This document shows, piece after piece, positions 42,032 to 60,670 of a stretch of DNA of 64,000 bases. This stretch comes from Deltaproteobacteria bacterium (GTDB lineage Bacteria > Myxococcota > Kuafuiibacteriia > Kuafuiibacteriales > Kuafuiibacteriaceae): positions 160,001-224,000 of the forward strand of contig JAVJQW010000017.1 of NCBI GenBank assembly GCA_040218735.1. The letters are read 5' to 3'. A model generated the notes under the pieces. The model searched no databases. It worked only from the letters and a program-made list of their open reading frames with translations, and had not been told where the DNA came from. The first letter of the stretch is position 1. Every line of letters starts with the position of its first letter. The translations under genes and the position numbers were made by a program.

Positions 42032-42055
42032 GGTGCCTCCTGAGCGCAGCCCTAG

Positions 42056-42071
42056 AGCAACCGGCGTTCCA
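42056..42071 (-). promoter_or_regulatory. sigma54 promoter of the aldehyde dehydrogenase operon
   Basis: Minus strand TGGAAC-GCCGG-TTGCT; divergent sigma54 activator gene; imperfect palindrome TGTAGCG-TTT-CGCTGCA at 42103-42119 as candidate enhancer. Confidence 0.8.
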
Positions 42072-42205
42072 CTCGATGGAACGGTCGGCTCTCCCGATGA
42101 CCTGTAGCGTTTCGCTGCAACTGCTTCGACGCGATACGTAGCGGCGCTTCAGCCGCGTCAGCGCCGGTTGCGGAGGGCTCCGCGTGCGTGGTTTCTTGAA
42201 GCGAC

Positions 42206-44032
42206 GTGCTGACCCTCTCGATCGAACGCGACGTCGCCGAGCGCTTCCCCATCCCCGATGAGCGCGCCGAGCCGGTGTTCGAACGTTGGCGCCGCGCCGT
42301 CGATTTGGTCGTCCGCTCCGACGGCCCCGCGCACCCCGAAGGCGTCGATGGGAGCGCGCTCGCCGTGCGGCGCGAACGACTCGAGACGACGTTTCGCCGC
42401 GACGATCTGCTGACGCCCGTACCGCGCGAGCTCATCGAGGCCGGCTACTCCGCGATCATCGCGGACGCCGACGGCTACATCATCGACGAGGCCACCAGCG
42501 ATCTCTTCGCCGGGACCGCGACACACGTTCGCCTGGTCCGCGGCGCGCGGTGGAGTGAAGCGACGCGCGGCACCAACGCGATCGGCACCGCGATCACCGA
42601 GGCCCAACCGATCGCCGTCGTCGGCGACGCGCACTACGAACGTCAAAACCGATCGCTCGTCTGTTACGCCGCACCGATCCGCGATCCGCGCGGGCGCGTG
42701 GTCGCCGTCTTCGATGTCACGTCACGCGTCGAGAACGCGAGCCCGTTGGTCGGTCCGCTCGTCACCGCGATCGCCGGCGCGCTGGAGCGCTCGCTCCACG
42801 AGGCGGCGTTCGCGCGGGCGGCGCCGGGCGGCCTCGCGACGTTGGAGCGCCTCGTGGAGATGGCGCCGGGGCGGGCGTGGCTCGTCGGCGCGGACGGACG
42901 TGTGCGGGCCGCGAACAGCGGGCGGTTCGGTGGGACCTTCGAGCTCGGTTGGTCGGAGCTGGAGCGCGCGATGTCGACGGACGGCGCTGCGATCCTCCCG
43001 AGCACCGACGAACGACTCGAGCTGCAGCCGGTGCCCGGCACGGACGGTGAGCCGATCGCGGTCGTCTGCTTCTCGCGTGGCGCGGCGCGACCGCGGGCTC
43101 GTTCGGTGCACCCGGCGTTCGACACGATCGCGGGGACCGACCCGGCGCTCGTCGACGCGCGCGCGCTCGCTTCACGGTTCGCGAGCTCGAACCTCCCGGT
43201 GATGCTCTTGGCCGAGACCGGCTCTGGCAAAGAGCTGTTCGCGCGTGCGCTCCACGCCGCGAGCTCACGCGCCGACGGGCCGTTCGTCGCGGTGAACTGC
43301 GGCGCGCTCGCGTCCTCGCTCTTGGAGTCGGAGCTGTTCGGTCACGCGCCGGGGGCATTCACGGGCGCGTCCGCGAAGGGCCGCGACGGAATGATCGGCG
43401 CCGCCTCGGGCGGGACGCTGTTCCTCGACGAGGTCGCGGAGATGTCGCCCGAGCTGCAAGCCTCCCTGCTCCGCGTCCTCGAGGACGGGTCGTACCGTCG
43501 CCTCGGCGAGACGTCGGTGCGCCACACGGACGTCCGGATCGTCACCGCGACGTGCCGAGATCTCCCTGCGATGGTGGAGTCCGGCGCGTTTCGCAACGAC
43601 CTGTACTACCGGCTGCGCGGGACGACGATTCGGCTCCCCTCCGTGCGCGCGCGGACGGATCGCATCGAGCTCGCGCGACACCTCCTCGAACGCCTCGCGC
43701 TCGAAGCGGGCCGTCCGGTGCCGCGGCTCGGTGAGAGCGCGCGCGAGAAGATCGAGGCCCACGATTGGCCGGGGAACGTGCGCGAGCTGAAGATGGCCTT
43801 GGCGCACGCGCTGGTCCTCGCGGACGACGTCATGGAAGCGGAGCACCTCCCGGACGACGCCCCCGTCACGCAGGCCCCCGTGTCTCACGCACCGCCGTCC
43901 CGGAGCGACGCGGAGCGCGAAGCGTTGGCTCGCGCGCTGGCTCAGGCGGACGGCAACCTGAGCGAAGCCGCTCGGATCCTCGGCGTGGCGCGAACGACGC
44001 TGTACCGCATGAAGCGGCGGCACCGACTCTGA
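42206..44032 (+). CDS. Sigma54-dependent activator, AcoR-like (GAF-AAA-HTH)
   Basis: [15 protein letters not shown]; [34 protein letters not shown]; Fis HTH. Confidence 0.93.
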
Positions 44033-48412: not shown

Positions 48413-49633
48413 TCATCCAGCGCGCAGCGCGGGGGCATCGGCCTCCTCCTTCAGACCCGCGAGCTCGGCGAGCAGGTGCTGGGCGACGTCGGTCGAGCGA
48501 ACGAGCTGCTCGGGGTCGACGTTTTCGACGGTGTCGCTCGGGTGGTGGTAGCCGCGCGGCGCGTGCTGCTCGGGGTCGATGCAGGTCAACGCGATCGCGC
48601 GATAGCCGTACGCGAGGAACGGGAGCGCGTCCGTGCCCCCCGCGGGGACGACGTACTTCGGCACGGCCGGCTGTCCGGCGTTGGCGGCCGCGGCGTCGAC
48701 GGCGGCGACCAGCGAGGCGGGCCGCTCGATGCGGTACAGCTCGCCCTCCTCCAGCGCGAACAGGTCACCGTTGCTGAGGGTGTCGAGGATGATGATCTCG
48801 GTGTCGTCGCGCGACCACTCGCCCTGCATCGCCTTCACCAGCGCGTAGGCGCCACCGGTGCCGGCCTCCTCCGCGCCCGTGAATCCGAAGACAACCTCCA
48901 CGTCGTCCGCGGCGCGCTGCGCCCACGCCTCCGCGAGCACGACCTGGGCCGCGCAGCCGGTGAGGTTGTCCGCCGCCCCCGGGACGACTTCGTTCTGCAA
49001 GACGACTTGCGCATTGACTAGGAACACGAGCACCGCGGGGATCAACAGCACGTAGCCCGGCCAGCGCGGGAGCTCGAAGAGCACGGACGCGACTTCGAAC
49101 GCCGCCGCCAGGACGACGCCGACCAGCGGCAACGCGAGCTGCTTCTGCAGGAACGGGAGGAACGACGGGGGCGGCGCGGCCATCACCTTCAAGACCTCGG
49201 GACGGAAGAGGAAGCCGGTGTACGCGGAGTCGACGTGGGCGAGGAACACGAGGCGACGGCGCATGGGGCCCTTCGCCGGGCGCGTCGCGAGGAGGTTCTG
49301 GCTGGAGACCTTGGGCCAGAGGTGCCTGAGGATCAGGCCGCGGCGTGTCGCCTCCGAGAAGAAGCTCACCGCGACCAGCACGTGGCCCGCGGCGGCGAGG
49401 TAGGCCCATGGGAGGGCGGCGAAGGCGAGCGCCAACCCGAAGTGCAGCGCGAGGCTCCCGTAGATGTGGCGGGGGTAGCGGAACGCGTGCCACGAGACGT
49501 CGTAGCCGGCCTTCTCGAGGCGCGCTGCGATGGCGTCCTGCGCGGCGCGCTCGTCCGGAGTGCCCGTGAGGCGCGTGCGGGCGATCCCGCCCAGCCAGCG
49601 GAGGGTGGAGACGACGTCGTCGGAGGCGCGCAT
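48413..49633 (-). CDS. Membrane-embedded M28-family metallopeptidase
   Basis: LAHVDS, PGAADNLTG, TGAEEAG, ILDT, GTDA, YHHPSD; internal TM helices. Confidence 0.85.
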   Translation of the reverse strand: MRASDDVVSTLRWLGGIARTRLTGTPDERAAQDAIAARLEKAGYDVSWHAFRYPRHIYGSLALHFGLALAFAALPWAYLAAAGHVLVAVSFFSEATRRGLILRHLWPKVSSQNLLATRPAKGPMRRRLVFLAHVDSAYTGFLFRPEVLKVMAAPPPSFLPFLQKQLALPLVGVVLAAAFEVASVLFELPRWPGYVLLIPAVLVFLVNAQVVLQNEVVPGAADNLTGCAAQVVLAEAWAQRAADDVEVVFGFTGAEEAGTGGAYALVKAMQGEWSRDDTEIIILDTLSNGDLFALEEGELYRIERPASLVAAVDAAAANAGQPAVPKYVVPAGGTDALPFLAYGYRAIALTCIDPEQHAPRGYHHPSDTVENVDPEQLVRSTDVAQHLLAELAGLKEEADAPALRAG

Positions 49634-49706: not shown

Positions 49707-49788
49707 TTGCGACTCCTGCAACTCGGGGCGCCGCGCGGGTTCACTTGCGGGTGGGTGCAAGAGATCCGGTGTCGGCATGGCCTTTGCT
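49707..49788 (+). promoter_or_regulatory. Enhancer pair + sigma54 promoter cassette (copy 1)
   Basis: TTGCGACTCCTGCAA (49707-49721), TTGC-N8-GCAA (49745-49760), CGGCAT-GGCCT-TTGCT (GG 49774-5, GC 49786-7). Confidence 0.8.
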
Positions 49789-49800
49789 CAGCAGCCACCG

Positions 49801-52746
49801 GTGAGCCGGATCAATCGACGCGAGTTCAGGACCCTCTCCGACCACAACGGTCGGCTGAACATCAACCGGATGCCTCCGCGGTTGATGCGGTCGCTCGAGT
49901 CGCACGGCGTCAGCCGCGCCGAGCTCTCCCGAATCGCCGGCGACGACCACGTCATCTCTGGGCCGGAGTTCAACGCGCTCTTCGACGCGCTGACGGCGCG
50001 CGCAGAACGCGGGGGCAGCGGCAACGACCGCGGCGTGAGCGAAGACCTCTTCAGCTCCCTCGCGTCCCGCATCGAACGGGACGGCGCGACCGAGCGAACG
50101 TCGGACTCGACCCGCTCCACCGTCGGCATCGGCGGGCGCGTGTCGGCGCGTCCCGGGACGGTCGAGACCGACGACGGCACGGCCAACCTGGACGAAGCCG
50201 CCGACCTCGAAGGCCGCACCGACGGCCAGCAGGCGTGTTGGTTCGTCGCGATGCTCCAGTGCATCGCCGAGTTCTTCGTCGAGACGATCGGCGGCGGCGA
50301 CTACATCCGCACCGCCGAGCGCGACGAGGCGCTGGGACGCGAGCTCGGTCGAAACCACGGTGAGTCGCTCCGCGCGATCCTCGACGAGCCGGGCGGCGAA
50401 GACGCCATCCGCGCCCAACTCCAGTCGCAGCGCCCGGAGGGCACCAGCGAGAACGACTGGAACCAGACCGTGAACCAGGTGATGCGCGGCATCCGCGCCG
50501 AGATCGCGAGCGGGCCCGATCTCCCCGACGACGTGGCGCCGTCCGCCGACCTCCTCGTCCGCGACCGCGCCGCCGTGCTCTACGCCGCGAACGACGACGC
50601 CGCCGCGCGCGCGGAGCTCGGCGCGACCGTCGAAGCGCTCGCGCAGAGCGGGCTGTCGACCGAGACGCAGCTCGCCTTGCTGAACCAGTGGGAGTCCGCC
50701 GGGCGTCCCGCCGAGTTCCGCCAGCAGCTCGAAGGTGTGACGCAGGCGCTGGCCGGGCGGAGCGAAGCCGTGCAGACCGCCGCGCGCGAGCAGCTCGACG
50801 CCCACCCCGAGCGCTTCGGTCGGCTCAGCGGTTTGATCCGATCGACCGGGTTCGGGAGCGACCGCATCTCGGACGACGCGCGCATCGCCGCGCTCCGCAC
50901 CACGGGCACGGACACCGCGGAAGCGGTCGCGAACCTCGACCGCCTCGTCGCCGCGGACGGCTTCGAGCGCGTCTCCCCCGAGGTCCAGACCCGCTACGTG
51001 AACATGATGCTCGACGAGTCGGTCGACGCCCGCGAGAAGACGCGCTCGCTTCAGCTCCTCGACGGCGCGCAGACCGGCGACATGGCCGGCATCAACAACG
51101 TGCTCTTCGGCGACGCGACGCTCCAGGCGGGATCGCAGGGCGACGAGGTTCGCCTCGTGCAACGCTACTTGCGCGGCCTCGGCTACGACGGCGTGCTCGG
51201 CATGACCGAGGGCAACACGTTCGACGCGGGGACGACGCGAGCCGTGGAGGCGTTCCAACGCCGCGCCGGCCTCCTCGACGGCAACCCGCCGGCCGCCACC
51301 GCTGGCGTCGTGAACCAGGCGACGATGCGCGCGATGGTGCACGCGCTCCACGCACGCGGGATGGACGCGAACGCCTTCCGCTTCACGACGGACCTGAGCC
51401 TCAACCGCCCCACGCGCGCGACCGACGGTCCGTGGCGCGCGACGCAGCGGTGGACGCCCGCGCTCCAGCAGGAGTTCGAGCAGTTCGCGGACGCGTACGT
51501 GAAGGCGCGCATCCCGCGGCACCCGAACGGACAGGCGCGGCTCCCCGAGTGGGGTGAGCGCGTCGACTGCGCGGACCTCTCGTACGAGGCGTTGATCCAG
51601 TTCGCGCGTCAGCGCGGCCTCCCGATCTCCCTGAGCAACGGCCAGACGACGTTCACGCACCGCAGCCGCGGACCGATCGTCGGACGCGTGCAGAGCGCGA
51701 TGGGCGCGATGCACCTTCGCCAGAACACACGCCCGCTCGGCGAGGGTGAGCTCCCGCGCCCCGGCGACCTCGGCAACATGGACTGGGACCAGAGCGTCGG
51801 CGACGGGCACGACAGCCGCTACTGGCACTCCCACAACATCGTCGACTTCGACCCGCTCTTCCACGAGGCGACGGTCGTCTACGGCAGCCTCGACGACCTC
51901 GTGAAGGAGAGCGCGCTCCAGCGCTTCAACGGGACCGACTACAACCTGACGATCCACGACATCCGCGAACGCGAGATCATCGACGCGATCAACGACGACA
52001 GCGGGCAGAACCGCCAGCAGCCGCGCGCGGAGCAGGAGCGCCGCGTGCGCGAGCTGTTGGAAGGGCACCGCACGGACGCGAGCCGACCCGTCTCGGACGC
52101 CGACGTGAACCGGTTCATCACGATGGTCTCGAACGACGCGAACCTGCACCGCAACGCGCCGACCGCCGTCTCCACGCGCGACGACGCGTTCACGAGCCTG
52201 GTGGAGGGCGGGCGGACCTGGGCCGACCCCACCGCGCGGGCCGCCGCGGTCGCGGACCTGAACCAGCGCTTCGGTGCGCGCTTCACGGAGGCCGACATCG
52301 ATCGCCTCGTCACGGTCTCGAACAGCCGACCGCCGCGCGGCATGACGCGACGGCAAGCGGTGACGCAGGAAGCGGCGCGCCTCGTCGCAGCGCGTGTCCC
52401 CGAGGGCCGTCGCGAGGGCGCGGCCGACGCGCTCCTCGCATCGACGCGGGGCGCGGTGCGCTACCACGCGGTGCGCGACGCCGTGTCGGACCCGGGGCTC
52501 AGGAACACGGCACGCGCCGACTTCAACCGCACCTTCGGCGCGCGCGTGACGGACCGCGACATGGTATCGATCCTTCGGGCCGGTGACGGGAGTGCACGAC
52601 GAGTGGCGGAGGGCATCGTGGCGCGACGTGGCGTCCCGGCCGAGCGCCAGGCCGAGGCCGCGCAGGCGCTCCTCGACGCCGTCGATGGCTCGCGCCGGTT
52701 CCGGAGGTGGGATTTCGATGCGTTCAACGCCGCTCGCGGCCATTAG
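49801..52746 (+). CDS. Peptidoglycan-binding-domain protein with putative papain/NlpC-P60-like Cys-His hydrolase domain
   Basis: LQAGSQGDEVRLVQRYL..LGY..FDAGTTRAVEAFQ..GVV..AT (PG_binding_1); RVDCADL, PRPGD, WHSH; no signal peptide; start moved to GTG 49801 because ATG 49777 lies inside the sigma54 box. Confidence 0.75.
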   Translation: MSRINRREFRTLSDHNGRLNINRMPPRLMRSLESHGVSRAELSRIAGDDHVISGPEFNALFDALTARAERGGSGNDRGVSEDLFSSLASRIERDGATERTSDSTRSTVGIGGRVSARPGTVETDDGTANLDEAADLEGRTDGQQACWFVAMLQCIAEFFVETIGGGDYIRTAERDEALGRELGRNHGESLRAILDEPGGEDAIRAQLQSQRPEGTSENDWNQTVNQVMRGIRAEIASGPDLPDDVAPSADLLVRDRAAVLYAANDDAAARAELGATVEALAQSGLSTETQLALLNQWESAGRPAEFRQQLEGVTQALAGRSEAVQTAAREQLDAHPERFGRLSGLIRSTGFGSDRISDDARIAALRTTGTDTAEAVANLDRLVAADGFERVSPEVQTRYVNMMLDESVDAREKTRSLQLLDGAQTGDMAGINNVLFGDATLQAGSQGDEVRLVQRYLRGLGYDGVLGMTEGNTFDAGTTRAVEAFQRRAGLLDGNPPAATAGVVNQATMRAMVHALHARGMDANAFRFTTDLSLNRPTRATDGPWRATQRWTPALQQEFEQFADAYVKARIPRHPNGQARLPEWGERVDCADLSYEALIQFARQRGLPISLSNGQTTFTHRSRGPIVGRVQSAMGAMHLRQNTRPLGEGELPRPGDLGNMDWDQSVGDGHDSRYWHSHNIVDFDPLFHEATVVYGSLDDLVKESALQRFNGTDYNLTIHDIREREIIDAINDDSGQNRQQPRAEQERRVRELLEGHRTDASRPVSDADVNRFITMVSNDANLHRNAPTAVSTRDDAFTSLVEGGRTWADPTARAAAVADLNQRFGARFTEADIDRLVTVSNSRPPRGMTRRQAVTQEAARLVAARVPEGRREGAADALLASTRGAVRYHAVRDAVSDPGLRNTARADFNRTFGARVTDRDMVSILRAGDGSARRVAEGIVARRGVPAERQAEAAQALLDAVDGSRRFRRWDFDAFNAARGH

Positions 52747-53338
52747 CTTCTGCCTCGTGGCGAGCGTCGCGCTCGCCAAGGACGACACCCCCGACGCGCG
52801 AGGTTTCTCGAAGTCGTCGCCGTGGCACCCCTTCACGAAGTCGAGGACCAACCTGTCGCAGAAGTGCGGCGCCGAGATCTCCACGTTCCACCTCCTCCGC
52901 GACGACCGCGACTGGATGGAGCTCAGCGGCCAAGACCGCTACCTGTGGACCCCCGTCGGTCGCTTCGTGAACCGCGGCGACGGGTGGAAGACGATCGACG
53001 ACGACGCGTGGGACGCCGTTCGCCTCTCGGGGCGATCGCTGCGCGAGCTCTTCGGCGCGCCGCTGGTGCCCGACACCTGGACCATCGCGAAGCACACACA
53101 CGAGGGCACCGCCGTGCACTTCACGCTGGAGGACGGCAAAACCGAGCTGGTCTACGACACCCTGGCCCAAACGTGGCGCGCGCAACGCCCGGGCTGGCGC
53201 GTCACCGAGCTCACGCAATTCGACGGGCGCAAGCTCCCGACGAAGGTCGTCTTCGACGACGGCTGCACGCTGCGACGCGGCTACGAGGTACCGCGGGGGG
53301 AGACGAAGCTCCCGACGCGCGACGAGCTCCCTCTGTGA
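52718..53338 (+). CDS. Secreted/periplasmic hypothetical protein (candidate immunity protein)
   Basis: GGAGG RBS, ATG 52718 overlapping the upstream stop by 29 nt; signal peptide ending ALA-K; two Cys in the mature part. Confidence 0.7.
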   Translation: MRSTPLAAISFCLVASVALAKDDTPDARGFSKSSPWHPFTKSRTNLSQKCGAEISTFHLLRDDRDWMELSGQDRYLWTPVGRFVNRGDGWKTIDDDAWDAVRLSGRSLRELFGAPLVPDTWTIAKHTHEGTAVHFTLEDGKTELVYDTLAQTWRAQRPGWRVTELTQFDGRKLPTKVVFDDGCTLRRGYEVPRGETKLPTRDELPL

Positions 53339-53934
53339 AGAAGAACGACCGCTCGGATCGCGCGCTCGGCATCCGCGCGAGCCGGTGTGTCGCCGCGAAG
53401 ACGTTGGACCTCGACGGGCCCCACGCGCGCTTCGCGCAGGACTACCAACCGACGCCCCCCGAGATCCTCGACGACCTGCTCGTGGATCTCGACGTCGCGT
53501 TCGACGCGTACACCTTCGTCGATCTCGGCGCGGGCAAGGGGCGGGTGTTGTGCCTCGCGACGCAGTGGCCGTTCTCGCGGGTCGTCGGGGTGGAGCTGTC
53601 ACGAACGCTCGTGGCGCAGGCGGAAGAGAACCTCGGGGGCTACGCCGCCGAGATCCGACACGGCGACGCCGCCGCGTTTGTCTTCCCGGCGTCGCCGCTC
53701 GTCGTCTTCATGTACAACCCGTTCGACGCACCGGTCGTTCGCGCCGTGCTCGACAACCTCGAGCGCTCGCTCGAGGAGCACCCGCGCGACGTGCGCATCC
53801 TCTACTTCGAGCCGGTGCACGACGCCGTCGTACGCGAGCGCTGGTGGATCGAACCCGAGCGCGCCGCGCCGCGGTGGGCGCGTTACACCGCGAGCTTCGG
53901 TCGTGCGAACGGGCGTGCAGCCTCCAGCGCGTAG
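53335..53934 (+). CDS. Class I SAM-dependent methyltransferase
   Basis: YQPTP, FVDLGAGKGR, GVELS, GDAA, FMYNPF; GTGA overlap with the upstream gene. Confidence 0.85.
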   Translation: MKKNDRSDRALGIRASRCVAAKTLDLDGPHARFAQDYQPTPPEILDDLLVDLDVAFDAYTFVDLGAGKGRVLCLATQWPFSRVVGVELSRTLVAQAEENLGGYAAEIRHGDAAAFVFPASPLVVFMYNPFDAPVVRAVLDNLERSLEEHPRDVRILYFEPVHDAVVRERWWIEPERAAPRWARYTASFGRANGRAASSA

Positions 53935-55268
53935 GCCAGACCGAACAACACGTCCTCGCGTCCGACGTGCGCTGCGAAGTGCATCCCGATCGGGAGGCCA
54001 TCGTCCGTCAGGCCCGACGGCACGGACATCGCGGGCACCCCGGCGATGCTGTGGATCGGCGTGTACCCGGCGAGGCGTTGCGTCTGGTGCACGAGCTCCT
54101 CGCGGGACTTGGTCGGCGCGAGGGTCCCGAGCGGCGGAGCCGGATCGGGGGTCGTCGGGCACAAGAGCACGTCGAAGGCCTCGATATACTCGAGATACTT
54201 CGCTGCCGCGGTCGCCGTGGCGGCGCGTGCCTTGTCGAGCGCGTCGGGAGGCTGCTGCCCGAACCACGCGAGGAGCTCCAGCGTGAACGGTTCGAGATCG
54301 TCAGCACCGAGCGTGCGGCCCACGAGGCCTTCGACCATCGCCTTGAAACCCGCGACGCTGGCCCCCGCCGCGACGAAGAAGGCGTCCCGGATGTCGGCGC
54401 CCTCGACGCGCGGAGCGTCGGCCTCCACGACCTCGTGGCCCAGCTCCGAGAGCAACGCGACCGTCGAGTGCAGCGACCGCGTCACGGCTTCGGACGCGGC
54501 TCCGCCGAGGAGCGTCGTCCCGTAGAAGCCGATGCGGAGCCGGCGGTCGGAGGGTTCGAGCACGAGCGGCATCCGTTCGATCGCGTCGCCTTGTGTCGCG
54601 TGGAGGAGCCGCGCGCTGTCGCGCACCGTTCGACTGACGCAGTGCTCGGTGAGCATCCCCAGCAGATCAGCCGCCTCCATCCCCGTGGGGAGCGTTCGAC
54701 CGCGCGTGGGTTTCATCCCGAACAGCCCACACGCTGCGGACGGGATGCGGATCGATCCACCCCCGTCGCTCGCGTGCGCGAACGGCACGTACCCGGCGGC
54801 GACCGCCGCCGCGGATCCTCCCGAGGAGCCCGTCGCGGAGCGCGCGAGGTTCCACGGGTTCTTGGTGGGCCCGTGCAGCAGCGTCTCCGTGCTGCCGAGC
54901 AACCCCAGCTCTGAGGTCGTCGTCTTGCCCAGTGTGACGAGGCCGGCCGCGTCGAACGCGGCGCTGTACGGCGACCCCTGGGGCGGCACGAAGCGCGCGA
55001 GCGCGCGGGAGCCGCAGGTGTTGGGCAGGCCGGGGTACGCGAGGAGGTCCTTCAGGAGGAACGGCACCCCCGCGAACGGGCCTTCGCTGACGTTCGCCGC
55101 GGCAGCGCGCGCGCGCTCGAAGTCGTGCGCCGCGAGCGCGCCGATCGTGGGTTCGAGCGCCTCGATGCGTTCGATCGCGGCGTCGACGAGCTCGACGGCG
55201 CTGACCTCGCGCTTGCGAACGAGGTCGGCCATGGCGGTGGCGTCCAGTGTTTGAAAGTCAGCTTGCAT
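53883..55268 (-). CDS. Amidase (amidase signature family)
   Basis: GVPFLLKDL, GKTTTSE, GSSGGSAAAVAAG, SDGGGSIRIP. Confidence 0.94.
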   Translation of the reverse strand: MQADFQTLDATAMADLVRKREVSAVELVDAAIERIEALEPTIGALAAHDFERARAAAANVSEGPFAGVPFLLKDLLAYPGLPNTCGSRALARFVPPQGSPYSAAFDAAGLVTLGKTTTSELGLLGSTETLLHGPTKNPWNLARSATGSSGGSAAAVAAGYVPFAHASDGGGSIRIPSAACGLFGMKPTRGRTLPTGMEAADLLGMLTEHCVSRTVRDSARLLHATQGDAIERMPLVLEPSDRRLRIGFYGTTLLGGAASEAVTRSLHSTVALLSELGHEVVEADAPRVEGADIRDAFFVAAGASVAGFKAMVEGLVGRTLGADDLEPFTLELLAWFGQQPPDALDKARAATATAAAKYLEYIEAFDVLLCPTTPDPAPPLGTLAPTKSREELVHQTQRLAGYTPIHSIAGVPAMSVPSGLTDDGLPIGMHFAAHVGREDVLFGLAYALEAARPFARPKLAV

Positions 55269-55884
55269 TTCTCACCCACTCCTTGAAGCCCGCGATCCCC
55301 GCGAGCTGGTAGCTCCAGAACGCCGCAAAAGCGCGGCGGATGTCGGCCTCGTCCTCGTGGTTCTCGAGGATCGAGACGATCGCGCGCAGCGACGTCGTGA
55401 AGATGTTGTCGAGCGTGAACCGGATGGTCTTGCTCACCACGATCCCGGGGACCTCGTGCCGCAGCTTCGCGACGGTGAGGGCGACGAGGCGCTCCACGAA
55501 CCGCGCGCCGAAGTCGGCGTAGGCCGAGCCCTCGGCGCGATCGAGCAGGACCACCACGCGGAGGCGGTGCTCGATCCAGAACGCGAGCATCGACTCGGCG
55601 TCGCCTTCGGCGCGTGCGTCGAGCTGGCCGAGATCCTCGAGCTCGACGAGCGAAGCGACACGACGATCCACGAGTCGCATCAGCTCGTCGGCGAAGGCCT
55701 CCGTGAAGACGCCGTAGAACAGCGCCTCCTTGTTCTCGAAGTACCGGTAGACGTTGCCGGTCGAGATCTGGGCTGCCTTGGCGATCGCCCCCATCGTCGC
55801 GCCCGCGTAGCCGCGCTCCGCGAAGACACGCTCCGCCGCCTCGACGATGCGCTGCTCGACCTCGGCTTTACGTCGCTGCACCAC
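55258..55884 (-). CDS. TetR-family transcriptional regulator
   Basis: IVEAAERVFAERGY.GATMGAIAKAAQISTGNVYRYFENKEALF. Confidence 0.93.
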   Translation of the reverse strand: MVQRRKAEVEQRIVEAAERVFAERGYAGATMGAIAKAAQISTGNVYRYFENKEALFYGVFTEAFADELMRLVDRRVASLVELEDLGQLDARAEGDAESMLAFWIEHRLRVVVLLDRAEGSAYADFGARFVERLVALTVAKLRHEVPGIVVSKTIRFTLDNIFTTSLRAIVSILENHEDEADIRRAFAAFWSYQLAGIAGFKEWVRNAS

Positions 55885-55913
55885 CCAAAAATGAACATGT
55901 CATTCATTTTTGG
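55885..55913. promoter_or_regulatory. TetR operator palindrome overlapping a sigma70-like promoter
   Basis: CCAAAAATGAA-N7-TTCATTTTTGG (perfect 11-bp arms) directly before the tetR start; minus-strand TTGACG-N17-CATGTT. Confidence 0.8.
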
Positions 55914-55927
55914 ATTCGTCAACGGGG

Positions 55928-56009
55928 TTGCGACTCCTGCAACTCGAGCGCCCCGCGCCCGGTCACTTGCAGCGGGCTGCAAGGAGCGCGGCCTGGCCCG
56001 CATCTTGGA
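55928..56009 (+). promoter_or_regulatory. Enhancer pair + sigma54-like promoter cassette (copy 2)
   Basis: TTGCGACTCCTGCAA (55928-55942), TTGC-N8-GCAA (55967-55982), TGGCCC-GCATC-TTGGA (GG 55995-6; -12 is GG, not GC). Confidence 0.72.
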
Positions 56010-56021
56010 ACGTTGGCCCCC

Positions 56022-57176
56022 ATGGGCACTCCAGACGTGCGCCGGGGCCGATCGACGCTCCCGATCCATCAGCCGACGGTCGCGCGACCGAACGTCACGC
56101 GCACCGGGCCTTCGGCGCCCGACGCGCCGGCGGTCGAGGGGCCCCGCGGACCGCGCTGGTCCCAGACCCCCGCGTGGGCGGAGCGAGCCGGCGCCGCGAA
56201 CGAGGGCGGCGGCGCAGAGCCGACCTACCAAGGCCCGCCCGCGGCGCGCCTCGGTGCGGGGAGCGAACGCCCCATCGCCGACGACCCGCAGCGTGCACGT
56301 CCCGCCGATCGCCCCGCCGACACCCCCGGCATCGGCGCGCGCACCACGCGCACGAAGGACACGAAGGACCCGCCCACGGCGCAACGTAACTTGCCGCCGA
56401 TCCGCTACGACTCCGCGGACGCCGGAGACTTCTACTGCGAGCACGTCTTCCACGTCGCGCAGCGCGAGGCGCTCGCGTCGTCGAGTTCCGTGATGCGCAA
56501 CGGCCAGGGTGAGCGGCTCGTCGGCTTCATCCACATCCCGCAGGACAGCCAGGCGACGCAGGCTCCGGACCCGACGCCCACGGACGCGGAGCAGGCGGCC
56601 CGACACGCCCAGACCCGGCAGGTGGTCGGCGCGGGCATCGCCGGCTACTTCGACGAAGCGCGCACGCAGACGGACGGCCCGGTGCGCATCATGCTGAGTG
56701 GGTTCGGGACGTTCGGCTCGTTCACCAACAACCCGTCGGGGGACTTCGTCTCGCACCGCGCGAACATCGACGCGGCGATGGAGGAGGCCTTCGGCGCGAA
56801 CCTCGTCGGACGACCGCCGGCGAACGCGGACATGAACCAACCGCTGACGTACCGCGTGCGCCAGCAGGACGGAACGGAGCGCGAGGTGCAGATCCGCGCG
56901 GTGAGGCTATCGGTGGACGATGCGGCGCTCGACCCAGCGCGCGCCGGATCGATCCCCCACACCATGCGGGACTTCGCACCGCACGCGGTGATCTCGATGG
57001 GTCTGCGGCCCGGGAGCCAGACGCACTACGACGTCGAGAACCACGCCGACGACGGCGGCCTCGCGACCGGGTCGAACGGCACGTCCACGCACCAACGCGG
57101 ACGTGCCTCTTCGACCGACTACGCCAACCGCAGCCTCGAGCGCGCGATCGAGAGCGCCCGGCAGACCGCGCCCTAA
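56022..57176 (+). CDS. Circularly permuted pyroglutamyl-peptidase I (C15)-like protein with disordered N-terminus
   Basis: DAGDFYCEHVF and GFIHIP precede IMLSGFGTFGSFTNNPS, PHAVISMG and YDVEN. Confidence 0.78.
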   Translation: MGTPDVRRGRSTLPIHQPTVARPNVTRTGPSAPDAPAVEGPRGPRWSQTPAWAERAGAANEGGGAEPTYQGPPAARLGAGSERPIADDPQRARPADRPADTPGIGARTTRTKDTKDPPTAQRNLPPIRYDSADAGDFYCEHVFHVAQREALASSSSVMRNGQGERLVGFIHIPQDSQATQAPDPTPTDAEQAARHAQTRQVVGAGIAGYFDEARTQTDGPVRIMLSGFGTFGSFTNNPSGDFVSHRANIDAAMEEAFGANLVGRPPANADMNQPLTYRVRQQDGTEREVQIRAVRLSVDDAALDPARAGSIPHTMRDFAPHAVISMGLRPGSQTHYDVENHADDGGLATGSNGTSTHQRGRASSTDYANRSLERAIESARQTAP

Positions 57177-60100
57177 GGCAGGTACGAGACGCGGCTGTAC
57201 GCGCCCTGCGACCACATCCGGTAGACGTCGCGGTTCACGTCGGTGTTCGGCGCGCCCACGCGCGTCGTCACCGGGAACGAGCCCGACACGTCCGAGACCC
57301 AGACCTCGTCCGCGCCGGCGGTCGTGAACGCACCTTCGAAGATCAGGCGCTGGCCATCCGCGGTCCAGAACCAGTCCCAGTTCCCCGCCCAGCTCGTGCT
57401 CATCGAAGCGTCGCTGGTCGTCGACACCGCGTTCGGGTGCACCTTGCGCTGCGGGCCCGGCGCCGAGCCGCTCACGTTCACGACGTACAGCTCGTACGTG
57501 CTCGACAGATCGAGCGTGCCGACGTAGGCGATGCGGTTCCCGTCCGGCGACCACTGGAACGACGTCACGTCGTTCGACGTGGTGAGCGCCGGCGTGTTGA
57601 CGCGGATCGATGCGTAGGGCGGGCCCTCTTCGAGGTCGACGAGGTACAGCTCCTCCGCACCGTCGAGGCTCAAGTCACCGATGTACGCGATGCGGGAGCC
57701 GTCGGGTGAGAACTCGTAGTCGAGCTTCGCGTCGGCGCCCATCTCGAGCGTGGACAACCCGTTCGTCGCGGACAGCTTGTACCGCGGCTGCGGGAGCGAG
57801 CCCGAGACGTCGACGATGTACAGCTCCTCGGCGAGGTTCACGTCGAGGTCACCGCGCATCGCGATGCGCTGGCTGTCGGGCGACCACTTCGCGCTCGTCA
57901 GCACGAGGTCACGCACGGGCGTCTCGATCGTCGCGCGCTGCCACGCGCCGGGGACGCTGCCGCTGATGTCGACGATGTAGAGCGCGTACGCGAAGTCGAC
58001 CTCCTGGTCTGCGATGTAGAAGAGCTTCGTGCCGTCGGGCGAGACACTCCAGTACTGCCAGTGGTCCGTCGTCGTGCTGATCTGCACGCCGCCGAGCGCC
58101 ACCATCGGACCGCTCACGACGATCGGCGTACCGAGCACACCACCGGTGGTGTCGACCCAGAACAGCTCGTTCTCGCTCGCGATGTTGAAGTCCGCGTTGA
58201 AGATCAGCGCGCGTGAGTCCGGCGTCCACTGGAAGTTCCCGTTGATGTCCGTCAGCGACGCCGGGTTCGAGAAGACCGGCGTGAGCGGGCCTGGCGCACC
58301 CCCGGCGGGGAGCGCGGAGAGGTCGACGAAGAAGAGCATGTCGTCCGACGACACCTCGTCGGCGATGAACGCGATCTTCGTGCCGTCCGGCGAGAAGTGG
58401 TAGTCGGGCAGGTACACCTCGGTCGCCGAGGAGACGTACGCCGAGCTCACGCGCACCGCCTGTCCAGGCGCCGCGGGGTTCGTGACGTCCACGACGAACA
58501 GCTCCTCCGCGAGGCTCGTGGTGACGTCGGCGCGGAACGCGAGCTTGGTGCCGTCGGGCGACCAGCGAAGGTCGACCGCGGACTGCGCGCCCGAGAAGCC
58601 GAGCCCGCCACTCACGACGATCGGCTCGCTGGGCGTGCCGCTGCGGAGGTCGACGACGTACACGTCGTCTTGGGCGTCGACGGTGAGGTCGCCGATGAAC
58701 GCGAGCGCGTTGCCGTTCGGCGAGAACGCGACCGAGAACGTGGCGTAGTCGACGTTGCCGCCGCTGACGGGGGCCGCCGGCATCGCGGGGATCGGCGTGG
58801 GCACGCCGGGCGTGCAGACCTCGCCGAGGACGATCATGTCGGACGCGCTGACGACGAAGTCACCGACCGCCGCGACCCAGCGTTGACCGCCAGGAAGATC
58901 GGCGACGTCGATCGTGAAGGTGCGCTCGTCGGTCAGGCCGAACGTGTCGGTGAGACGAATCGTGAAGTTGTACGAGGAGGCCGTCGCGCCCGTGGGCCCG
59001 CCCAGCGTCGCCGAACGCGACCCCGACCCCAGCACGATGCCGGGCGGCAAAGCGCCGTTCACGACCGACCACTGGTAGCCGCCGTTGCTGCCGCCGGTGC
59101 CCTGGATGATCGTGCGGTACGTGCTGCAGAACGGCGCGTCGGGCACCGTCATCGTGGTGATCGTCGGGAGCGTCGACGGGGGATCGACGGTGATCTGCAC
59201 GGGCACCGACGCCGTCGCGTTGTTCCAGTCGTAGACCGTGACCGTCGCGGTAAACGTGCCGAGCTGCAGCGCCGCACCGCTGATGACCGTCGACGGCGAA
59301 CCAGGCACCTGCAGCGTGAGGCCGTTCGGCAACGCCCCGCTGCTGACGACCCAGTTGTACTGACCGAACCCATCCTGAGCGGTGAGCATCGCCGAGTACG
59401 CTTCACCGCCCACGGCGTTCGGGAGGACGATCGTCTGACCGCCGCCCACGATCGTGATCGGGAAGACCTGCTCGGCCACGTTCAGGATCAGGGTCTGATC
59501 GTCGGAGCCACCGCGCGCGTCCGTTACCTCGATCTGAATCTCGAAGGTCCCGAACTCCGTCGGTGTGCCGACGATGCGCGTCGACGGACGGCCCCCGGGC
59601 TCGAGCGTGAGGCCCGCCGGGAGGCGGCCGTTGACGATCGCCCACGTGTAGTCACCCGCGCCGTTCAGCGCGGCGATCGTCGCCTCGTACGCCGCGCCGA
59701 CCATCGCCGGCGGCAACGAGATCGTCGTGATGCGCACGGCGGGCGGCGGCTCGGAGATCTCGAGGAAGAACGTCTTGCGAGCGCGCTGGCCCTCGGCGTC
59801 CTCCGCCTCCACCTGAACCGTGAACGTGCCGGACTCCGTCGGTGTGCCGGACAGACGCGCGGTCGTGTCGTCGACGCGCGTGAGCGCGAGGCCGGGCGGG
59901 ATCTGCCCGGCACCGCGACGGAAGACGGTCCCGCCGACGCCGCCCATCACTTCGATCGTCGCGTCGTAGGGCTGGCGCTGTTCGGCCGTGGGGAGCGAGG
60001 TCGTCACGAACACGAGCGGCAACGTGTCGTCGACGATCTCGATCGTGTAGCTCTGCCGCGCGCTGCCGCTGTCGTCGTCACGCACTTCGATCGTAAAGGT

Positions 60101-60670
60101 GTACGACCCCTCCGAGCCCGCCGGGAGATCGCCATACAGACGTGTGCTCGGCGTACCCGTCGCCTCGAGCATCAGGCCGGCCGGGAGCGTCCCCGACGCC
60201 ACGCGCCAACGGTAGCCGTCGTTCGATCCGCCCGTCGCTTCGATCGTCGCGTCGTAGGTCGTGCGCGTCGCGGCGTTCTGCAAATCCAGCGTACGGATCG
60301 CGAGCACCGGCGGCAGGTCGCCCACCACGATCGTGAAGGGCCGCGCGTCCTTGGTGCCGACGCTGTCCTCGACCTCCACCGTGAAGGTGAATGAGCCCAG
60401 CTCGGTGGGCGTACCGCTCAGTCGCGTCGCCGGGGTGCCGGACGTGCGGAGCGAGAGACCGTTGGGGAGCGCGCCGGACGTCACCGACCACTTGTAGTCG
60501 GTCTCCGTCCCGCCGCTCGCTTCGATGGAGGCCGCGTACGGGGTCCCGATCTCTGCATCGGGTACCGTCTCGGTCTCCAAGACGATCGCCACCGGCGGGG
60601 CCACGGGCTCGGTGCCCGAGCAAGCCGTCAGGAGGACGATAGGAACAGCCAGAAGGGGGAGTTGCTTCAT
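57173..60670 (-). CDS. Large surface lipoprotein: ~6 putative Ig (He_PIG) repeats + TolB/PD40-like beta-propeller
   Basis: LLTA-C lipobox; repeated Y.W.V.SG.LP.GL.L...SGTPT..G.FTFT; repeated [WF]SPDG.[KR]IA[FY]. Confidence 0.85.
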   Translation of the reverse strand: MKQLPLLAVPIVLLTACSGTEPVAPPVAIVLETETVPDAEIGTPYAASIEASGGTETDYKWSVTSGALPNGLSLRTSGTPATRLSGTPTELGSFTFTVEVEDSVGTKDARPFTIVVGDLPPVLAIRTLDLQNAATRTTYDATIEATGGSNDGYRWRVASGTLPAGLMLEATGTPSTRLYGDLPAGSEGSYTFTIEVRDDDSGSARQSYTIEIVDDTLPLVFVTTSLPTAEQRQPYDATIEVMGGVGGTVFRRGAGQIPPGLALTRVDDTTARLSGTPTESGTFTVQVEAEDAEGQRARKTFFLEISEPPPAVRITTISLPPAMVGAAYEATIAALNGAGDYTWAIVNGRLPAGLTLEPGGRPSTRIVGTPTEFGTFEIQIEVTDARGGSDDQTLILNVAEQVFPITIVGGGQTIVLPNAVGGEAYSAMLTAQDGFGQYNWVVSSGALPNGLTLQVPGSPSTVISGAALQLGTFTATVTVYDWNNATASVPVQITVDPPSTLPTITTMTVPDAPFCSTYRTIIQGTGGSNGGYQWSVVNGALPPGIVLGSGSRSATLGGPTGATASSYNFTIRLTDTFGLTDERTFTIDVADLPGGQRWVAAVGDFVVSASDMIVLGEVCTPGVPTPIPAMPAAPVSGGNVDYATFSVAFSPNGNALAFIGDLTVDAQDDVYVVDLRSGTPSEPIVVSGGLGFSGAQSAVDLRWSPDGTKLAFRADVTTSLAEELFVVDVTNPAAPGQAVRVSSAYVSSATEVYLPDYHFSPDGTKIAFIADEVSSDDMLFFVDLSALPAGGAPGPLTPVFSNPASLTDINGNFQWTPDSRALIFNADFNIASENELFWVDTTGGVLGTPIVVSGPMVALGGVQISTTTDHWQYWSVSPDGTKLFYIADQEVDFAYALYIVDISGSVPGAWQRATIETPVRDLVLTSAKWSPDSQRIAMRGDLDVNLAEELYIVDVSGSLPQPRYKLSATNGLSTLEMGADAKLDYEFSPDGSRIAYIGDLSLDGAEELYLVDLEEGPPYASIRVNTPALTTSNDVTSFQWSPDGNRIAYVGTLDLSSTYELYVVNVSGSAPGPQRKVHPNAVSTTSDASMSTSWAGNWDWFWTADGQRLIFEGAFTTAGADEVWVSDVSGSFPVTTRVGAPNTDVNRDVYRMWSQGAYSRVSYLP

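Follow-up and report, generated by a model that had tools for sequence, protein, structure and literature searches.

A fixed-distance palindrome upstream of sigma-54-type promoters marks a genus-level regulon of probable exported toxins

Why would two unrelated genes be preceded by the same 19 bases, at the same distance from what looks like the same kind of promoter? The question arises from a stretch of 64,000 nucleotides (the window; C23:160001-224000) of a deltaproteobacterial genome, G000 (11.6 Mb, 68.8% GC, 70 contigs). The two genes, P0001 (49801-52746, forward strand; 981 amino acids counted from its GTG) and P0002 (56022-57176, forward strand; 384 amino acids counted from its ATG), encode proteins with no detectable similarity to each other, as an earlier note on this DNA had stated. 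That note proposed that they belong to a dispersed, co-regulated set of enzymes that are exported without the Sec pathway. We worked from sequences and predicted models alone, and from these we infer sigma-54 dependence, enhancer binding, leaderless translation, and export. The geometry of the shared motif, its recurrence in the genome, and its conservation in a sister species give good in silico support for placing both window sites in a genus-level sigma-54 regulon. We also favor, with moderate confidence, the further reading that a single activator drives this regulon and that its products are probable exported toxins; in that reading, both the activator and the export route are putative.

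Two promoter cassettes with one geometry

Both cassettes begin with the identical 19-mer TTGCGACTCCTGCAACTCG, which a direct reading of the sequence places at 49707 and 55928 and which has no third copy in the 11.6-Mb genome. This 19-mer is box 1, TTGC-N7-GCAACTCG, a putative site for an enhancer-binding protein (EBP); it spans 49707-49725 at site 1 and 55928-55946 at site 2, on the forward strand in both cases. A GC-rich spacer of 23 nucleotides (nt) at site 1 or 24 nt at site 2, ending in TCAC at both sites, leads to a second palindrome, box 2 (TTGC-N8-GCAA; 49745-49760 and 55967-55982, forward strand). Sigma-54-type -24/-12 elements follow on the same strand: CGGCATGGCCTTTGCT at 49773-49788, with a predicted transcript start at ~49799, and TGGCCCGCATCTTGGA at 55994-56009, with a predicted transcript start at ~56020. 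The site 1 element is a full match to GG(-24)/GC(-12), with 10 nt between the doublets. We found neither an Rfam family nor a sigma-70-like promoter in this region of the window.

When we computed the offsets, the distances given in the earlier note held exactly. The first T of box 1 lies 67 nt before the -24 GG at both sites, and the start codons (GTG at 49801 and ATG at 56022) both lie 14 nt past the -12 base, or 12 nt past the 16-nt motif. This leaves no room for a ribosome-binding site, and the geometry predicts a leader of ~2 nt. Within the window, TTGC-N7-GCAACTCG with at most one mismatch has 4 matches (0.29 expected), and none of 100 shuffled sequences reached 4.

Box 1 recurs across the genome at a fixed offset

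The earlier note expected its full two-box pattern upstream of many genes and held that finding it at these two sites only would speak against a regulon. Across the whole 11.6-Mb genome, the literal pattern matched only the two window sites, so in that form the claim fails. By requiring box 2, the literal pattern asked too much, as this box belongs to the two window genes alone: it is confined to their promoters and those of their orthologues in the sister species, and it is missing at the remaining box-1 sites. (A search for related loci in a collection of genome contigs recovered just two.) Without box 2, the pattern does recur, at eight promoters plus three weaker ones, and it is in this reduced form that a dispersed set survives.

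The first ~120 residues of P0001 match the N-termini of two further large open reading frames (ORFs) in the genome, and both of these have box 1 upstream, together with a sigma-54-type element placed 12 nt before the start codon; neither has box 2. A genome scan with box 1 alone found eight sites before a sigma-54-type GG, with an offset of 67 nt at seven of them and 68 nt at the other. As a control, we considered 77,275 loose GG-N9-TG[CGT] sites and offsets of 40 to 120 nt: offset 67 had 6 perfect (12/12) boxes, and the 80 other offsets together had 2. The three weaker sites (C21:441512, C46:133803, and C70:147004) have 9-10 of 12 box matches, offsets of 66-68 nt, and good promoters.

Among the seven sites at offset 67 (the offset-68 site was left out), the average pairwise identity is 0.76 for box 1, 0.63 for the promoter, 0.32 for the spacer, and about 0.3 for the flanks. 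The box is conserved while the spacer and the flanks are not, which indicates conservation of a binding site rather than a recent duplication or a copied segment. These values bear on an alternative in which box 1 is not an activator site at all; it might be the operator of a repressor or of an architectural protein, or a leftover from the duplication of a promoter together with the adjoining 5' end, and it would then say little about co-activation. Three members are paralogous at their 5' ends, so promoter and N-terminus may have been copied together; enhancers are often tolerant of distance, which makes a rigid 67-nt spacing odd; and a palindrome resembling a TetR operator lies beside site 2. 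We nevertheless consider this alternative distinctly improbable. Besides the background-level identity of the spacers, five of the box-1 genes lack the N-terminal domain of the paralogues, box 1 has a predicted position (about -92 to -74) of the kind usual for EBP sites, and its 15-bp palindrome would fit a dimeric helix-turn-helix protein.

With activation by an EBP as the preferred reading, the module resembles NtrC- and NifA-type promoters in its -24 GG and -12 GC, in having a palindrome roughly 80-90 nt upstream, and in belonging to a genome with rpoN and many EBPs. It differs in that 7 of the 8 sites place the box at one set distance, 67 nt, and in that the promoter adjoins the start codon. 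NifA binds TGT-N10-ACA, and we know of no EBP site that matches box 1.

The module is conserved within the genus

For both window sites, we used a genome from the same genus (the sister species G001) as the comparison. The orthologues of P0001 and P0002 lie on one contig of G001, with 75% and 74% protein identity, respectively. Both orthologues have box 1, box 2, and the -24/-12 element upstream, separated by spacers that have diverged, and the 12 nt from the promoter motif to the GTG or ATG are retained although the bases in between have changed. The site 1 promoter in G001, CGGCACGGGCCTTGCT, is nearer to the consensus than the window's copy is; at site 2, all 16 promoter bases are the same as in the window and the flanks differ. 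The distance from box to GG is 67±1 nt at site 1 and 65 nt at site 2 (the latter counted by hand), so the spacing is not absolutely rigid. The conserved protein alignments start at residue 1, which fixes the start codons. Overall, recurrence in the genome and conservation in G001 support the claim that the two window sites resemble sigma-54 promoters that have an upstream activator site in common.

The order to which G000 belongs is represented by 20 species genomes, all from one family. Scanning these for box 1 plus promoter gave 6 matches in G000 and 4 in G001, with no control matches in either; the other 18 genomes had 0-1 matches each versus 0-3 for the controls. A half-site pattern was likewise at background level in the other genera of the order. 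Thus, the cassette is dispersed within the genome yet specific to the genus. By eye, some genes from other genera that encode the N-terminal domain discussed below have a TGCAA[CG]TC half-site ~57 nt before the GG.

Many sigma-54-type promoters abut start codons

The genome has one rpoN (one match to PF04552) and 103 matches to PF00158, about 90 of which are strong EBPs. A stricter promoter motif has 703 matches, and 107 of these have an ORF's start codon 12-15 nt downstream, where the start is taken as the first in-frame start of a long ORF with high GC content at third codon positions. By distance, there are 34 cases at 12 nt, 37 at 13 nt, 22 at 14 nt, and 14 at 15 nt, as compared to 0-11 cases for every other single distance from 0 to 79 nt. 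With 107 such cases genome-wide, starting 14 nt past the -12 base without a ribosome-binding site is not a mark of the cassette.

Raw pattern counts give a similar picture. Spacings of 12-15 nt outnumber spacings of 24-27 nt by 88 to 9 in G000 and by 52 to 4 in G001, but only by ~1.3- to 4-fold among the other genomes of the family, and the ratio is about 1 in most of 21 genomes from other families of the phylum. Reversed-pattern controls in G000 gave 58 and 42, so the ORF-filtered count (107) is the stronger figure. These patterns predict that sigma-54 makes leaderless mRNAs on a large scale, most strongly in this genus, and the fixed 67-nt module together with more than 100 start-abutting promoters suggests a routine coupling of sigma-54 transcription to leaderless translation. 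In the literature that we located, including the available portions of PMC12754779 and PMC3616915, we found no report of systematic leaderless mRNAs from sigma-54 promoters. In Deinococcus-Thermus, according to the available text of PMC12340547, a -10 region next to ORFs gives rise to leaderless mRNA; going by that text, the two cases are alike in having a fixed, short distance from promoter to start codon genome-wide, and they differ in that the promoters there are sigma-70 type and those here are sigma-54 type.

At C24:88628 onward, we noticed a gene with a leaderless-type sigma-54 promoter that lacks box 1 and instead has a GTGCGCGCAC palindrome upstream; its product contains TVGIGAPMPARP at amino acids 15-26.

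The two window proteins

P0001 begins with a family domain that has no match in Pfam or NCBIfam (amino acid 1 to ~100), followed by the motif GIGGRVSARP (about amino acids 110-119). When residues are numbered from an upstream ATG (49777), which gives 989 amino acids, a PG_binding_1 domain covers 454-519 and a putative cysteine-hydrolase region about 549-786; C-terminal repeats come after these. The earlier note had described a long low-complexity N-terminus, which is half right: a low-complexity linker is present, but it comes after a domain that is predicted to be folded and helical. The region at 549-786 has homologues in just seven clusters among 1.84 billion representatives. It has an invariant cysteine, which begins a helix (74-89 of the model), and among its structural neighbors in the Atlas are NlpC/P60 and CHAP proteins, with TM-scores between 0.38 and 0.47, and hypothetical Bdellovibrionota proteins (TM-score 0.57).

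P0002 begins with a Pro/Arg-rich, disordered-looking region, with GIGARTTRT near amino acid 103. The rest is a distant relative of pyroglutamyl peptidase (family C15): 8 of 30 homologues carry PF01470, and the Atlas score is 0.91. P0002 itself has no match in Pfam, and its score against the NCBIfam model for C15 is 19.9 bits, with a cut-off of 201.75. In an alignment of 20 sequences, FYCEH (with the cysteine), GF[IL]H[IV]P (with the histidine), and VE (with the glutamate) are invariant, and we take these residues to be the catalytic triad of canonical C15 enzymes. The order of the segments is unusual. The cysteine and histidine (GFIHIP) segments precede the GFGxFG…NPSGDF segment and the glutamate; because the cysteine/histidine segment lies ahead of a segment of the N-terminal type, the domain is circularly permuted, and its triad is intact. 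It represents a new way of arranging a known enzyme fold. The permuted C15-like family (56400-57173 in the window, listed as amino acids 130-387 of P0002) has about 20 close relatives, mostly metagenomic, with a long N-terminal extension.

The earlier note assigned a C-terminal cysteine-hydrolase domain to both proteins. The assignment is supported for P0002; in P0001, the region is central and its fold is unsettled. Searching both proteins by sequence against solved structures gave nothing meaningful.

A small ORF on the same strand (52718-53338, 206 amino acids) overlaps the end of P0001 by 29 nt and begins with a Sec-type signal peptide. It also lies directly after the P0001 orthologue in G001, with 46% identity as compared to 75% for P0001. 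It has no family match and is a candidate for a periplasmic immunity or partner protein. Similarly, a small lipoprotein-like ORF lies downstream of another gene with box 1, which encodes an 818-amino-acid protein, and two small coupled ORFs lie downstream of a third, which encodes a Fic protein. A member plus a small coupled ORF is the layout of toxin-immunity pairs; by this analogy, the small ORFs are putative immunity genes.

Proteins linked to box 1 and their N-terminal domain

Outside the window, the genes with box 1 encode a 2,559-amino-acid Fic protein, a 921-amino-acid protein, the 818-amino-acid protein, a PGAP1/DUF676 lipase-like hydrolase, a protein with RTX repeats, and a 149-amino-acid protein. 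The N-terminal domain of P0001 is shared by the Fic protein and the 921-amino-acid protein, and the N-terminus of the 818-amino-acid protein resembles that of P0002. The motif [ST]xGIG[GA]…ARP occurs at amino acids 103-122 in five linked proteins, including both window proteins. (A loose GIG…ARP regular expression matches mostly off-frame noise.) That the window proteins lack signal peptides, as the earlier note said, extends to the whole set: none of the 11 proteins linked to box 1 has a hydrophobic N-terminus, as compared to 47 of 101 other genes with leaderless-type sigma-54 promoters (P = 0.0024, Fisher exact test, in which the paralogues are not independent).

A profile of the N-terminal domain has 34 matches, in 12 of the 20 genomes of the order. 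We inspected the upstream regions of 30 of these genes, leaving out 4 that had no loci. Twelve have GG-N9-TGC, with the GG 27-31 nt before the start codon; in one more, the GG is at 36 nt and a Shine-Dalgarno sequence is present; in another seven, a plausible element lies 43-108 nt upstream, judging by eye from matches to a loose regular expression; and the others lie inside operons or have no element. We scanned 10 of the 13 complete or near-complete ORFs with this domain from other genera. Seven of the 10 combine the N-terminal domain with PG_binding_1 (amino acids 135-197) and ~300 residues of unknown type, for ~490 amino acids in all. The model of the domain (predicted local distance difference test score [pLDDT] of 77) has two helix-loop-helix units and short paired strands. 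The best Foldseek hits are of the calmodulin type (E at least 0.45), so an EF-hand-like fold is only a lead.

Overall, one N-terminal domain is joined to several kinds of partner: a cysteine-hydrolase-like region, Fic, regions of unknown type, or PG_binding_1 together with an unknown region. T6SS Tae/Tai proteins (from type VI secretion systems) are amidase-immunity pairs, and the effectors of Salmonella pathogenicity island 2 share an N-terminal translocation domain. The family seen here has the same design as these effectors and as polymorphic toxins, namely a conserved N-terminal module with varied C-terminal domains, and as in Tae/Tai pairs, a small ORF with a signal peptide is coupled downstream of a peptidoglycan-directed member (here, P0001). 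It differs from polymorphic toxins in that the N-terminal domain has no match in Pfam or NCBIfam and the immunity partner is only a candidate. The system combines known kinds of parts, a sigma-54/EBP regulon and effectors that resemble polymorphic toxins. Sorting or processing could be directed by the unnamed N-terminal domain and by the GIG…ARP motif, both of which are candidate tags, and a promoter signature that picks out a few signal-less, toxin-like proteins offers a concrete list of candidate effectors for related organisms.

The same proteins might instead form a co-regulated set that stays in the cytoplasm, such as a stress or developmental sigma-54 regulon that remodels the cell wall during differentiation, with no dedicated export. 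In favor of this, a folded structure is predicted for the N-terminal domain, cytoplasmic activity is possible for Fic and peptidase domains, and the nearby Ser/Thr kinases and EBPs with FHA domains (see below) would fit developmental signaling as in Myxococcus. However, PG_binding_1, which is found in P0001 and in most of the scanned relatives, has no substrate in the cytoplasm; an ORF with a signal peptide is coupled to P0001; and RTX repeats and lipase-like hydrolases are typically extracellular. We view a purely cytoplasmic set as unlikely and consider it plausible, judging from these features of the sequences, that the products are exported without a Sec signal.

Candidate activators

Which EBP might bind box 1? 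The window encodes one (42206-44032), whose gene is arranged divergently with that of an aldehyde dehydrogenase and which has a 46%-identical paralogue elsewhere. The aldehyde dehydrogenase gene has its own sigma-54-type element (TGGAACGCCGGTTGCT; minus strand, 42032-42100, by eye), along with a leader of ordinary type and a Shine-Dalgarno sequence. Given the divergent arrangement and this element, the window's EBP probably serves the dehydrogenase gene; upstream of the EBP gene itself, there is only the half-site-like CTGCAACTG. The pair forms a conventional sigma-54 unit beside the leaderless ones.

EBPs with FHA domains (FHA-EBPs) are better placed. One (C21:312018-313355) lies tail to tail with a target of a perfect box 1, and two more are within a locus on C70 that encodes a paralogue of the secretion protein SctV. 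Genes for Ser/Thr kinases adjoin a box-1 site on C24 and are also found in the C70 locus. From these arrangements we infer a chain in which a kinase would act on an FHA-EBP and the FHA-EBP on box 1. Near two box-1 sites, at C24:65750-65880 (L052), an EBP gene seems, by eye, to be disrupted, with a 13-nt tandem duplication in the region of its Walker A motif.

Possible routes of export

A search with PF05943 did not find TssC in the genome, and we set aside the T6SS as a route. There are seven matches to FHIPEP, the family that includes SctV of type III secretion systems (T3SS). Not all seven can belong to injectisomes, as the match on C59 is the flagellar FlhA, beside flagellin and FliF genes. 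The protein at C23:323241 is SctV (824 bits versus the NCBIfam cut-off of 692); the copies on C41 and C70 also score above the SctV cut-off, and those on C38 and C9 fall just below it. The C23 gene sits with SctQ-like, FliO, SctR, SctT, and SctU genes, ~80-100 kb past the end of the window, and no secretin gene was found near this cluster. The SctV paralogues (C41:146084, C70:143580, C38:16372, C9:330842, and C16:73260; four full-length and one partial) lie outside complete T3SS clusters, and there are leaderless-type sigma-54 promoters at the loci of at least the C9 and C70 copies.

The sole physical link between box 1 and a secretion machine is the C70 locus, which also encodes a member of the N-terminal domain family. 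In a divergent promoter region there, a perfect box 1 accompanies sigma-54 elements. The adjoining operon encodes a sub-threshold match to a needle protein, a calpain-like peptidase, a beta-helix protein, a protein with the N-terminal domain and PG_binding_1, a HEAT protein, a Ser/Thr kinase, and the two FHA-EBPs. The peptidase (C70:151268-152203, or 8268-9200 of L053) is a cysteine protease of the calpain family (Peptidase_C2), and in G001 a box-1 cassette lies directly before the orthologous calpain-like gene, with 12 nt to the ATG. Of the export routes, a T3SS-derived machine (the SctV gate and its paralogues) is the best linked and is weakly supported. A role in predation is speculation.

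It is also conceivable that a contractile injection system carries the products, or that they leave by lysis or in vesicles, instead of through a T3SS-type machine. The genome has four genes of the phage-sheath family, the disorder of N-terminal regions is reminiscent of the packaging signals used by extracellular contractile injection systems, and no chaperone genes were seen next to members of the regulon. Against this, we saw no perfect box 1 near the sheath genes (there is a variant with two mismatches near C9:546574), among the machinery loci, a perfect box 1 occurs only at one that encodes an SctV paralogue, and TssC was not found. We judge these other routes to be very improbable.

The T3SS-type route has a possible parallel in the same phylum. 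According to the available text of PMC12075869, Myxococcus xanthus has a needleless T3SS* that, together with the Kil Tad pilus, is required for the lysis of prey; it mentions potential effectors and, in that text, names none. As described there, T3SS* resembles the C23 cluster in having a non-flagellar SctV/U/R/T gate with no secretin gene beside it (a likeness, not a claim of orthology), and G000 adds four or five SctV paralogues and a flagellar system.

Control of secretion by sigma-54 and EBPs has several precedents. HrpR/HrpS activate hrpL for the T3SS of Pseudomonas syringae, VasH serves the T6SS of Vibrio cholerae, and Chlamydia has sigma-54/CtcC. In these systems as in G000, EBP-type promoters accompany secretion genes, which here are those of the SctV-paralogue loci and the non-flagellar T3SS cluster. 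The arrangement differs from HrpR/HrpS-hrpL in that effector-like genes carry the enhancer themselves, with no relay through an intermediate sigma factor, and from VasH in that no link to a T6SS was found.

A proposed mechanism and the points against it

In the reading that we favor, one EBP would bind box 1 (TTGC-N7-GCAACTCG), 67 nt upstream of the -24 GG and at about -92 to -74 relative to the predicted transcript start. From that position, it would switch on transcription by sigma-54 RNA polymerase at a -24/-12 promoter lying directly against the start codon. The resulting mRNAs would be leaderless or would have a leader of ~2 nt. The likeliest activator would be an FHA-domain EBP under the control of a Ser/Thr kinase. 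The regulon (8 clear and 3 weaker promoters) would make proteins without Sec signals that share N-terminal features: a helical domain of ~100 amino acids or a Pro/Arg-rich region, and then GIG…ARP near residue 105-120. To these would be fused peptidoglycan-binding and putative cysteine-hydrolase modules (P0001), a permuted C15 peptidase (P0002), Fic, a PGAP1/lipase-like hydrolase, or RTX repeats. The products would most likely be exported toxins or lytic enzymes, some of them with immunity-like genes downstream.

Several observations weigh against parts of this account. At the promoters, the site 2 element keeps the -24 GG but has GG at -12, where a near-invariant GC is expected, and box matches of 9-10 out of 12 also arise by chance, which weakens the three extra sites. 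As for the proteins, our own model of the catalytic region of P0001 has a pLDDT of 64 and no fold match, the region has no match in Pfam, and the N-terminal domain is predicted to be folded, unlike the classic disordered signals of T3SS effectors. As for the activator, the EBP in the window was rejected as the first choice because it appears to be dedicated to aldehyde dehydrogenase; with ~90 EBPs in the genome, proximity is weak evidence; and no member of the set of 90 EBP genes lies within 15 kb of 4 of the 11 sites. As for export, the two leaderless-type sigma-54 promoters of the non-flagellar T3SS cluster on C23 are without box 1, the SctV paralogue on C70 has no other core T3SS genes nearby, and the needle-protein match in that locus (E = 1.3e-3) is below the cut-off.

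A bolder version would have this myxobacterial lineage rebuild both gene expression and attack on sigma-54, with more than 100 leaderless genes, a kinase-controlled FHA activator, a rigid 67-nt module, tagged toxins with immunity partners, and a needleless T3SS-derived gate at which each SctV paralogue selects its own set of cargo. We regard this version as quite unlikely. If it is true, then T3SS-type effectors against bacterial peptidoglycan would be known for the first time, in P0001 and its relatives, and these would supply the missing effectors of prey lysis by myxobacteria.

Neighboring genes

Site 1 is preceded by an M28 peptidase gene on the minus strand (48413-49633). Between the two cassettes, after the small ORF that is coupled to P0001, are genes for an amidase (53883-55268) and a TetR protein (55258-55884), both on the minus strand. 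A perfect, AT-rich inverted repeat of 11 bp, CCAAAAATGAA-N7-TTCATTTTTGG (55885-55913), adjoins the start codon of tetR and ends 14 nt before box 1 of site 2. This palindrome is also present in G001 and is the likely TetR operator, through which TetR could modulate P0002; tetR itself may be leaderless. At the other end, a minus-strand gene (57173-60670) converges on P0002 and encodes a protein of 1,165 amino acids with six He_PIG immunoglobulin-like repeats and a PD40 beta-propeller.

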